From: Candidatus Babelota bacterium
GTDB taxonomy: Bacteria > Babelota > Babeliae > Babelales > Vermiphilaceae
Length of the DNA: 32,000 bases
Reading direction: 5' to 3'
NCBI GenBank assembly: GCA_039809905.1
Contig: JBDHVY010000001.1
Span: 570,001-602,000, forward strand
The number at the start of each line of letters is the position of its first letter. Positions within the stretch are counted from its first letter, which is position 1. Below are positions 17,371 through 25,874 of this stretch, piece by piece. Below the pieces are notes generated by a model. That model was not told the DNA's origin and ran no database searches. It saw only the letters and a list, made by a program, of their open reading frames with translations. Both the position numbers and the translations under genes were made by a program.

Positions 17371-18534
17371 ATGAAGCATGCATTGGTTGTTTTTTTATTG
17401 TATTCATTTCCATCTATTGTTTTTACTGCAGAGACAAATCCCATAAACAATACACATCCTTGGGAATTAATTGCAGAAATTAAACAAGATGAGGCCATTA
17501 AATCAGCTTATTTCAATTTCCAGGGAACATCACTTATTACATCTACCGATCATGGAGTAACCGTAACTGATATTTCATTGCAAAAACCTCTGTCATTTTT
17601 CACAACAAAACAACAAATCGTATGTCTTAATCCTTCAGAAAAATTTCGTATCATTAACAATAAATGCACAGTAGAGGGTACTAGCACAAACGATGTTATT
17701 TATTGGCCATATAAACAAAGAACAATCGATCATCATGCATTTATGTCTTATTTACCAGTTACACCTCATCGCTGCGTTATACAAAAATATGGGCCACAAC
17801 GGGAACTTGCTGGCATAACATCGGAACCCACTCCATCTAAAAATGAGGGATACTGGTTACGATTATATGATATTGGACTTGGAAAAATCACTATTGAATA
17901 TTATCATCCTTGTAAGATTAAGGATTTCTGTCTTCATTCCGATAAAAATATTGTTGCTTCAATAACCTATCCAGATCCAGCAGTGCGCGTATGGAATACA
18001 GAAAAATGGCATCGATTCCCGATAAAAGGATATACCCAAGAATTACATTCAATACGTTTTGATGAAAGCAATGGCAATCGATTGGTTGTAACTGGTCAAG
18101 ATACAATAGACGTATTGGATATAACTAATCCTGAAAATCTTACAACTATTACCTCTTTTGCCAATACTGAACATAGCACTCAAGCGTGTCTGAGCGGTAA
18201 ATACTTAGCAGTAGCATCGCAACCTATAAAACTGTTTGATATAGAAACAAAACAGGAAGTAATGTCGATCGCAGGAAACAACAATTCATCACCAATGAAT
18301 TGCTTTGGTTCTATGGGAAATTTGTTGGTTGTTATTAATGATAAAAACGCTCTTATTTTCAAGAAACAAGAAAACAAAGACACAGAATCCAATGCCATAT
18401 ATAAAAAAACAATAATTGTTACAGGACCTCGAGAATCTTCGGATGAATGTTGTCAAGTTCCATGCCAAAACCAGATAATCACGATTTTTGCGAGCATAGT
18501 CGCGTTGCTTGAAAGTAAATTTTTTAATTGTTAG
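17371..18534 (+). CDS. WD40-like beta-propeller protein with a leader and a Cys-rich/hydrophobic C-terminus
   Basis: 387 aa with an AAGGA SD. The leader is LVVFLLYSFPSIVFTA. Blade-like repeats include DFCLHSDKNIVASITYPDPAVRVWNTE, LHSIRFDESNGNRLVVTGQDTIDVLDI and YLAVASQPIKLFDIETKQ. Confidence 0.6.
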   Translation: MKHALVVFLLYSFPSIVFTAETNPINNTHPWELIAEIKQDEAIKSAYFNFQGTSLITSTDHGVTVTDISLQKPLSFFTTKQQIVCLNPSEKFRIINNKCTVEGTSTNDVIYWPYKQRTIDHHAFMSYLPVTPHRCVIQKYGPQRELAGITSEPTPSKNEGYWLRLYDIGLGKITIEYYHPCKIKDFCLHSDKNIVASITYPDPAVRVWNTEKWHRFPIKGYTQELHSIRFDESNGNRLVVTGQDTIDVLDITNPENLTTITSFANTEHSTQACLSGKYLAVASQPIKLFDIETKQEVMSIAGNNNSSPMNCFGSMGNLLVVINDKNALIFKKQENKDTESNAIYKKTIIVTGPRESSDECCQVPCQNQIITIFASIVALLESKFFNC

Positions 18535-24621: not shown

Positions 24622-25284
24622 ATGACCGCAAACTCCTTTTACTCATCAAACATATTTTCTGGTAAACTACAAAAAACAACATACAATTCACAAAACCGGA
24701 ATATTATGAATCAAAAACAATCAAAGGCAACAGCATTACAAAAGCTCTATGAACCGTATAAAGAATGTCTGACATGCCCTCTTTTAATACCTACAAAGCA
24801 TAATGTTGTATGCGGCCAAGGCAATCCCAATGCAGAATTAATGCTGATTGGCGAAGCACCCGGAAGACTTGAAGATGAACAAGGGTTACCATTTGTCGGA
24901 AAATCAGGCATGCTTCTTACCAAAGCACTAACGTGCCTTGATATAGATAGAAAAGATATATTCATAACCAACAGTGTAAAATGTCGTCCACCACAAAATC
25001 GTAAGCCAACACCCCAAGAAAGCAAAACATACAAACAGTTATTGCTTCTTAAGGAAATAGAAATTATTCAACCAAAAGTTATTTGCACCCTTGGAGCAAC
25101 AGCTCTTGAATGCTTACTTGAAACACCAGTAAAAATGGAAGCAATGCATGGAAAGCTACTTTCTTTTAATGGCATCACTCTCATACCTGCGTATCATCCC
25201 GCTTATGTTTTGCGAAATCCAACGAAATTTGAGGCGTGGTTTAGGGACCTAGAGCAAGCTTGGTTGCTTGCGCAAAGTAAGTAA
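24622..25284 (+). CDS. Uracil-DNA glycosylase, family 4
   Basis: AAGGAG SD. Motif A is LIGEAPGRLEDEQGLPFVG. CLTCPL and KCRPP cysteines are present, and motif B is HPAYVLRNP. Confidence 0.85.
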   Translation: MTANSFYSSNIFSGKLQKTTYNSQNRNIMNQKQSKATALQKLYEPYKECLTCPLLIPTKHNVVCGQGNPNAELMLIGEAPGRLEDEQGLPFVGKSGMLLTKALTCLDIDRKDIFITNSVKCRPPQNRKPTPQESKTYKQLLLLKEIEIIQPKVICTLGATALECLLETPVKMEAMHGKLLSFNGITLIPAYHPAYVLRNPTKFEAWFRDLEQAWLLAQSK

Positions 25285-25340
25285 AAACACAAACTGCATC
25301 ACTTATCACATCAAAAAACAAAGAAATTACACAGTTAAAG

Positions 25341-25395
25341 GTGGTGCATAAGTGGTTGATAAGTGGTGCATAAGTGGTTGATAAGTGGTGCATAA
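25341..25395 (+). repeat. Five tandem 11-bp units (GTGGTGCATAA / GTGGTTGATAA alternating); DnaA-box-like on the complementary strand
   Basis: Read directly: gtggtgcataa gtggttgataa gtggtgcataa gtggttgataa gtggtgcataa. Confidence 0.9.
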
Positions 25396-25496
25396 CTTTT
25401 TTAGCTCACATTTTTTTGAAAAAAATTATATCGACCTGATGAAGATATTCATGCAACATAGCGAGATTAGAGCGACTCAGTCAATGTTTTCAGAGT

Positions 25497-25529
25497 TATC
25501 AACCACTTATCAACCACTTATGCACCACC
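25497..25529 (-). repeat. Three tandem 11-bp units in inverted orientation (TTATCAACCAC x2, TTATGCACCAC)
   Basis: Read directly. 25503-25530 is the exact reverse complement of 25340-25367, giving a 28-bp perfect inverted repeat. Confidence 0.9.
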
Positions 25530-25584
25530 TGTTTAAAAAAAATTATAACGATCAGATCGATATATTCGAAGAAAAAAGGGCAAG

Positions 25585-25595
25585 TTATGCACCAC
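25585..25595 (-). repeat. Isolated ninth unit, TTATGCACCAC
   Basis: Read directly. It is followed within 15 nt by the AT-rich tract at 25611-25648. Confidence 0.7.
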
Positions 25596-25874
25596 TTACC
25601 CCTTCGCCTATTATCTTAAGATATATAAATATATATATTAAGAGATAATAATAGGCAGTATGTTTTTTTCAAAAAACTCTTTTTTTTGTATCACCTAAGT
25701 CAAGAAACAATGGATTTACTGTTTTTTATTGCCAGAAAAAAATAATTGTAATAAGCTTTGAGAATAAGACTCGATAATTCGTGCACAGCATTCTTTTTTT
25801 TGCTGCCGTAAGACTCTAGTCAAAAACAATCTCTTTTTGCTGTTATAAAATTCATCATCATTTTGAGGAAGCTT

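Follow-up and report, generated by a model that had tools for sequence, protein, structure and literature searches.

A predicted dnaA-unlinked chromosomal replication origin in the udg-nusA spacer of a Dependentiae bacterium

The spacer between the genes udg and nusA of Candidatus Babelota bacterium is very probably the origin of chromosomal replication (oriC) of this organism, and it would be an origin not linked to dnaA. The spacer was analysed within a stretch of 32,000 nucleotides (contig JBDHVY010000001.1, positions 570,001 to 602,000; the whole stretch is called the window), which is assigned by sequence comparison to an uncultured member of the Dependentiae (TM6, Babeliales), a phylum of intracellular parasites of protists. 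An origin at this place had been proposed in an earlier note made from the letters of the window alone. The proposal is supported by three independent lines: the repeat units in the spacer are positional orthologues of arrays of the DnaA box TTATCCACA, the GC skew switches at the spacer, and the layout around a DNA unwinding element (DUE) is conserved throughout the phylum. An origin as such is an expected feature of any genome and not categorically new. Three things are new: the udg-nusA spacer is assigned as the Dependentiae origin, the architecture of this origin is conserved and very regular, and its DnaA boxes have been rewritten in a clade-specific manner. This would place the origin of an uncultured intracellular phylum between udg and nusA, off dnaA, with its anatomy described at base resolution.

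Box arrays and unwinding module of the spacer

The spacer comprises the 578 bp between the udg stop and the nusA start (25285-25862). It contains nine exact 11-bp units, five head-to-tail, three inverted and one further inverted, as the earlier note had stated and as a motif scan and Tandem Repeats Finder bear out. The distal array is composed of five contiguous units (25341-25395), in which GTGGTGCATAA alternates with GTGGTTGATAA. Read on the minus strand, its 9-mers are TTATGCACC, TTATCAACC, TTATGCACC, TTATCAACC and TTATGCACC in exact 11-bp phasing; Tandem Repeats Finder reports a period of 22, 2.5 copies and 100% matches. An inter-array spacer follows (25396-25495; 109 bp from box start to box start), then the proximal array of three contiguous boxes in opposite orientation, i.e. 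on the plus strand (25496-25528): TTATCAACC (25496-25506), TTATCAACC (25507-25517) and TTATGCACC (25518-25528), again with 11-bp phasing. This inverted trio had been recognized before, but at 25497-25529, one base too far to the right. Hence, the two arrays oppose each other (>>>>> then <<<) in exact 11-bp steps with 2-bp gaps between the 9-mers. The lone inverted unit was found where it had been indicated, at 25585-25595 on the plus strand. It consists of TTATGCACC followed by AC, adjoins the unwinding element and is set off from the proximal array by a spacer of fixed length (25529-25584), which holds an A8 tract, TTATAACGATCAGATCG and a second A-tract.

Altogether, TTATGCACC is present five times and TTATCAACC four times, in agreement with the earlier count. 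Compared to TTATNCACA, five of the nine boxes have one mismatch and four have two. Where at least three closely spaced DnaA boxes in non-coding DNA are looked for at an origin, the window offers a cluster of nine within 255 bp. With one mismatch allowed at most, GTGGTKSATAA matches the window 13 times against 2.3 expected, a number that none of 100 shuffles reached, and all nine exact matches fall into the udg-nusA spacer. The opposed arrays generate a perfect inverted repeat of 29 nt (25339-25367 versus 25502-25530) with arms 134 nt apart. Its presence had been noted correctly, but in the 28-bp pairing given for it, 25340-25367 was set against 25503-25530, which shifts the register by one base. 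In addition, two direct modules of 36 nt, one in the inter-array spacer (25415-25450) and one in the fixed-length spacer (25532-25567), are identical at 29 of 36 positions (81%), which confirms the previous estimate.

The box cluster is directly followed by an unwinding module. On the top strand, the TTATGCACC box (25585-25593) is succeeded by a 14-nt C-rich spacer, acttaccccttcgc, by CTA TTA (25608-25613) and by an AT-rich core. The 14 nt are counted from the 9-mer to the first trio-like triplet and include the AC of the 11-mer; without it, the C-rich spacer is ttaccccttcgc (25596-25607). The DUE itself (25607-25655) starts with CCTATTAT, continues into the AT-rich core and carries on the far side of this core a mirror arm, ATAATAGG (25648-25655). 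The tract 25609-25653, 14 nt from the box at 25585-25593, has an A+T content of 91% and is the least stable 45-mer of the entire 32 kb, with a nearest-neighbour energy of -38.9 kcal/mol compared to -42.1 kcal/mol for the runner-up. This substantiates the AT-rich run with which the earlier note had closed the block, and the tract, next to a DnaA-type box as in the window, is conserved in the relatives.

In the basal unwinding system, a 5'-TTATCCACA-3' box with at most two mismatches is followed by a GC-rich spacer and then by repeats of 5'-CTA-3', the complement of the 3'-GAT-5' DnaA-trios. Spacers of 0-16 bp are described, with 13 as the most common length, and three or more trios should be present (PMC8287927, PMC8235120, PMC7561715). 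In the window, TTATGCACC has two mismatches to TTATCCACA, the spacer is 14 nt long and the orientation is that from 5'-TTATCCACA-3' to CTA. CTA and TTA complement the DnaA-trio consensus 3'-GAT/AAT-5'. They are followed by TCT, so that two canonical trios are in frame and a third one is found only in another frame with a spacer of 16. Thus, the window conforms at most marginally to the trio expectation. Among the relatives, box, 13-14 nt and CTATTATTATTA form a conserved pattern. Four in-frame triplets (CTA TTA TTA TTA) are present there; three relatives resemble the window in that TCT follows after two.

Conservation across the phylum and strand asymmetry

A NusA scan of species-representative genomes yielded 62 loci, nearly all of them annotated as Dependentiae, TM6 or Babeliales. 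The NusA proteins of the closest relatives are 86% and 84% identical to that of the window. In most of the 62 species, the same architecture is present ~400-550 bp upstream of nusA: 3-5 forward boxes in steps of 11-12 bp, ~108-111 bp, 3-4 inverted boxes, likewise in steps of 11-12 bp, 66-68 bp, one inverted box, 13-14 nt, CCTATTATTATTA or CTACTACTA, and an AT-rich tract. In some species, an additional box divides the inter-array gap of ~110 bp. The DUE-adjacent box is 67 bp away from the last array box in the window and 66-68 bp away at all 54 loci where this was measured. The inter-array spacer has kept its length (108-111 bp in many species) and is poorly conserved in sequence. The 67-bp spacers diverge as well, apart from phased A-tracts and a conserved CGATCAGATCG element. 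Since both lengths (~110 and 67 bp) are maintained while the sequences diverge, a geometric constraint such as a bend or a loop is suggested, and the 67-bp spacer may be a bending or accessory-factor site.

The two 36-nt modules of the window are not equivalent. The second one (A8 tract and TTATAACGATCAGATCG) is found clade-wide in the fixed 67-bp spacer; of the first one, relatives retain only a (A/G)(C/T)GATCAGA core. A TGATCA-like element containing GATC recurs at the position of a 36-nt module in the distant lineages L013, L024, L025 and L053 and may be a candidate site for an accessory factor.

The box sequences vary between lineages on this common scaffold. At the same position, canonical TGTGGATAA/TTATCCACA boxes are found in L016, L021, L023, L024, L026, L028, L030-33, L038, L040, L042, L043 and L048, and GGTGGATAA/TTATCCACC boxes in L010-L020, L019, L039, L051, L053 and others; L037 mixes TTATCCACA and TTATCCACC. 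The clade of the window (NusA identity of 76% or higher, and 12 metagenome contigs) has TTATGCACC and TTATCAACC and occasionally TTATGAACA. The dominant box is TTATCCACC at 24 loci, TTATCCACA at 20 and TTATGCACC at 19. The DUE-adjacent box is invariably TTATGCACC within the clade of the window; in the other lineages, it is TTATCCAC[AC]. Because sister lineages carry perfect TTATCCACA arrays at the same place, the units of the window are positional orthologues of canonical DnaA boxes, i.e. homologous to boxes recognized by DnaA. Counted with the generic pattern TTAT[CG][CA]AC[CA] across the loci, boxes reach a density of 16.6/kb in the 450-bp cluster and 0.16/kb in the ~20-kb flanks, a difference of about 100-fold.

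In the clade of the window, every box appears to have shifted from TTATCCAC[AC] to TTATGCACC or TTATCAACC. Therefore, either tolerance at positions 5-6 or a co-adapted domain IV of DnaA would be required. Co-evolution of initiator and origin could be tested on this stepwise drift, which leads across lineages from TTATCCACA over TTATCCACC to TTATGCACC/TTATCAACC. A more far-reaching combination is conceivable, if rather doubtful: The rewritten and often alternating boxes might go along with an altered specificity in domain IV of DnaA, or stronger and weaker sites, or two initiator forms, might share the work, and at the same time the DUE might be two-sided, with mirrored trio arrays serving both strands. 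If the boxes were indeed rewritten together with the initiator, the phylum would represent a natural series for initiator-origin co-evolution on a fixed scaffold.

The gene environment is conserved, too: udg, spacer, nusA and infB form a chromosomal synteny block in 33 of 52 species. The exact 22-mer was found on 13 metagenome contigs, and the 12 interpretable ones all have it between udg and nusA. L074, a 1.5-kb metagenome contig (Ga0115001_10152582), contains the exact 22-mer TTATCAACCACTTATGCACCAC at 1124-1145 as a single dimer. It has neither a udg or nusA homologue nor further boxes, resembles unrelated AT-rich coding sequence and is the sole off-locus occurrence found. Two short Logan contigs, L001 from SRR27308745 (end 5848) and L002 from SRR27308757 (end 4146), encode a UDG identical to that of the window. 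Both stop inside the tandem array with its 22-bp period, and the origin repeat appears to break short-read assemblies, probably by creating a cycle in the k=31 assembly graph.

The second line of evidence is strand asymmetry. The cumulative G-C count drops steadily along the window until it reaches its minimum at 25223, and rises thereafter; over the three plus-strand genes immediately left of the spacer, the skew is still negative or near zero. In about 43 of the 46 loci longer than 15 kb, the cumulative minimum is no more than a few hundred bp away from the spacer upstream of nusA. To separate this switch from gene orientation, GC skew at third codon positions (GC3 skew) was considered, always measured on the top strand. 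On the left flank, it is -0.18 for plus-strand genes (n = 203) and -0.24 for minus-strand genes (n = 101); on the right flank, the values are +0.16 (n = 230) and +0.14 (n = 56), respectively. As the sign changes for genes of both strands, the switch does not result from gene orientation. Its polarity, from negative to positive, is the one that an origin should show if the leading strand is rich in G, as it usually is.

The earlier note had cautioned that the genes on the left point at the site, unlike at an origin. This turned out to be the conserved state of the phylum: udg faces the spacer at 33 of 52 loci, and two thirds of the left-flank genes of the 62 related loci (203 of 304) are on the plus strand, towards the origin. 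Therefore, their orientation is no evidence against an origin. Left-flank plus-strand genes including the conserved udg would be transcribed head-on to replication. Gene-strand bias seems to be weak or reversed on the left flank in Dependentiae.

The AT-rich tract of the window lies between mirror-image arms, CCTATTAT...ATAATAGG (25607-25655). Similar arms are found in relatives, e.g. CTACTACTA...TAGTAGTAG in L023 (9829-9878) and CTACTACTCT...AGAGTAGTAG in L047 (5957-6005), and also in L045 (8349-8401). In a covariation test with fixed arms, a species' own arms had 2.7-3.1 mismatches compared to 3.0-3.3 for arms from other species and 4.7 for shuffled controls. In a test of the longest run, the values were 7.67 and 7.29 (permutation p ~0.03, uncorrected for relatedness). 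This means, the mirror motif is conserved relative to shuffles. Base-pairing of the arms is not claimed, as the evidence for lineage-specific compensatory change is weak. Beyond the mirror arm, an extra forward DnaA-type box is located in L003 (9794-9804), L026 (~9879), L030 (~9904), L042 and L066 (413-423), so that the element is flanked by boxes on both sides in these five; the window lacks such a box.

Comparison with known origins and rival explanations

The E. coli oriC is composed of a DUE, R1, an IHF site, R5M/tau2/I1/I2, R2 and C3/C2/I3/C1/R4 and is flanked by mnmG and mioC. Like the window, it has two opposed arrays of DnaA sites with 2-bp gaps and 11-bp phasing as well as a single DUE-adjacent box that is oriented as the nearer array and set off by a spacer. 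Neither of the two is adjacent to dnaA. When the window is flipped so that the DUE is on the left, the order DUE, box (>), 67 bp, >>>, 110 bp, <<<<< corresponds to the E. coli topology, a likeness to be taken as a lead only. In contrast to E. coli, where a few strong sites flank weak ones, the sites in the window are all near-consensus and contiguous. Furthermore, an IHF site or a GATC cluster has not been demonstrated in the window, to which no protein-site model was applied, the flanks are udg and nusA instead of mnmG and mioC, and the box ends in C in the window's clade.

With the basal unwinding system of B. subtilis and H. pylori, the window shares the 5'-TTATNCAC-3' box, the C-rich spacer of 13-14 nt, CTA/TTA and the AT-rich core. 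The orientation of the DUE-adjacent box is that of R1 in E. coli and box 7 in B. subtilis (PMC8235120). Differences are the single proximal box instead of a fused pair, the number of in-frame canonical triplets (two in the window, four in relatives) and the mirror-image arm on the far side, TAATAATAGG, which is outside the published system. The predicted origin joins the opposed, 11-bp-phased arrays of E. coli with the box-spacer-trio module of B. subtilis and H. pylori, two features for which mostly separate model organisms are cited, using near-consensus sites at fixed distances.

A mechanism can be proposed. DnaA would fill the two opposed arrays with one protomer per 11 bp, like the left and right DnaA sub-complexes of E. 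coli. The isolated box would act like R1 of E. coli or box 7 of B. subtilis and nucleate a DnaA-ATP oligomer. This oligomer might run across the C-rich spacer onto the CTA/TTA triplets, i.e. the DnaA-trios of the bottom strand, and open the AT-rich core. The fixed 67-bp spacer with its A-tracts probably bends the DNA, by which the array-bound oligomer would be brought to the opened strand.

In the literature, three cases are of relevance. For Chromulinavorax destructans, another member of the Dependentiae, an origin of 593 bp was predicted at 651641-652233 from GC skew and TTATCCACA (Deeg 2019, PMC6561590). That paper does not report which genes adjoin it or how it is organized internally; it agrees with the spacer in kind, its size is close to the 578 bp found here, and the boxes of the window are TTATGCACC/TTATCAACC instead of TTATCCACA. 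Thermotoga maritima has a variant DnaA box, AAACCTACCACC, which is coupled to changes in domain IV of DnaA (Ozaki 2006, as cited in PMC6669920). It is a precedent for a lineage-specific box and ends in CCACC as here, but it is a 12-mer with a different 5' half. For Babela massiliensis, GC skew had led to an origin 152 nt upstream of dnaA (PMC4378268). In the Babeliaceae loci L024, L028 and L064, box cluster and skew switch are both located upstream of nusA, and there is no dnaA within 10 kb. Either Babela differs or the published assignment has to be re-examined, and its placement beside dnaA is thereby called into question. Full-text literature searches found no description of the origin architecture reported here.

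Several points weigh against an oriC in the udg-nusA spacer. Compared to TTATCCACA, the window boxes differ at two positions (TTATGCACC) or at two to three (TTATCAACC), and the stringent CACA core is broken in TTATCAACC. Only two canonical trios are in frame, compared to three needed in B. subtilis. The skew switch could be followed only over 6-10 kb to either side. No locus has dnaA within 10 kb of nusA, and the initiator of this organism was not encountered. The placement reported for B. massiliensis does not fit a phylum-wide nusA-linked origin, unless it is approximate or Babela differs. As to the initiator gene, neither the window nor any of 77 loci gave a match in tblastn with E. coli DnaA (a query confirmed as DnaA by Pfam), although matches up to E<=1 were admitted. 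Linkage to dnaA/dnaN, which is common for oriC and not defining, is absent at the window locus.

Some of these points would suit a regulatory cluster of DnaA boxes with the true origin elsewhere, either a datA- or DARS-like site for titration or reactivation of DnaA or a DnaA-dependent operator of nusA-infB: The boxes are located directly upstream of nusA-infB, dnaA is not nearby, and one publication puts the origin of a Dependentiae isolate beside dnaA. Nevertheless, such a cluster is improbable. It leaves the gene-strand-independent switch in asymmetry at exactly this spacer in ~43 of 46 species without explanation, and a titration site would have no need of the conserved box-spacer-trio arrangement by which the cluster is linked to the least stable tract. 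The earlier note had also considered an iteron-type control region or a phased platform for a different DNA-binding protein, such as a regulator of nusA-infB or a plasmid- or phage-like Rep; an iteron-type origin belongs to this rival as well. The period of 22 bp with 2.5 perfect copies does look iteron-like, and two alternating unit types could suggest a dimeric reader. However, no rep, integrase, transposase or mobile-element gene was found among the neighbours in the window, so that the locus lacks the arrangement of iterons beside a cognate rep on a mobile replicon. Instead, it belongs to the synteny block described above, and the counterparts of the units in sister lineages are perfect canonical DnaA boxes that repeat every 11 bp rather than every 22. 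Such a platform is therefore not supported and very improbable.

Finally, the long inverted repeat might be the functional part: as a hairpin in an RNA (a small RNA or the leader of nusA), as a cruciform in the DNA or as a dispersed repeat resembling a miniature inverted-repeat transposable element (MITE). The 29 perfectly paired nucleotides favour this, as do matches to generic hairpin precursors in Rfam, all of them sub-threshold; no Rfam family reaches threshold. Yet each arm varies in number and order of its units independently of the other, close relatives differ in the length of their longest exact inverted repeat (10-39 nt), and conservation tracks the box consensus rather than pairing. 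An arm separation of 134 nt would be too far for easy extrusion of a cruciform. A MITE-like cassette, which the earlier note had suggested to look for, would be expected in many copies at unrelated loci, like repetitive extragenic palindromic (REP) elements. Such copies were not encountered: Outside the spacer, the motif density is the low one of the flanks, no exact unit exists elsewhere in the window, and 12 of the 13 metagenome contigs represent the udg-nusA locus. A structured or dispersed element is thus hardly to be expected. The preferred interpretation of the spacer as oriC would have practical uses in orienting and closing metagenome-assembled genomes, in estimating growth rates from origin-to-terminus read-depth ratios and in origin databases.

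Neighbouring genes, coding capacity and RNA content

The genes around the spacer are all encoded on the plus strand, in the order comEC-like, C11 peptidase, udg (24622-25284, a family-4-type uracil-DNA glycosylase), spacer, nusA (25863-26936), infB and pyrG. The start codon of nusA is apparently TTG at 25863, immediately after the spacer; the 357-aa product is unrecorded, so other gene callers may choose differently. A rimP gene is not present upstream of nusA in the window. The remainder of the spacer up to the nusA start (25656-25862, plus strand) is outside the box architecture and presumably holds the nusA-infB promoter and leader. A promoter scan detected no sigma-70-like promoter on the plus strand of the spacer, and the total number of matches was no higher than in shuffles.

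The spacer had been described as lacking a credible open reading frame, and this holds: The sole one, of 87 aa (25385-25648), has no Pfam match and is interrupted by stops in every close relative (L003-L009). A coding function was therefore rejected. A scan of the window at Rfam gathering thresholds found no family; tRNA and tmRNA genes are absent from the window as well. A permissive Rfam scan of the spacer returned only sub-threshold models of eukaryotic microRNA precursors, which reflect a generic hairpin signal.

Further to the left, the window encodes an M16 peptidase, WD40-repeat proteins, ribosomal protein S1, glyA, efp, nusB and others. Three of the products, located at 1571-5731 and 17371-18534, are large WD40/beta-propeller repeat proteins (656, 674 and 387 aa). 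These are eukaryote-like domains, in line with reports for intracellular Dependentiae.

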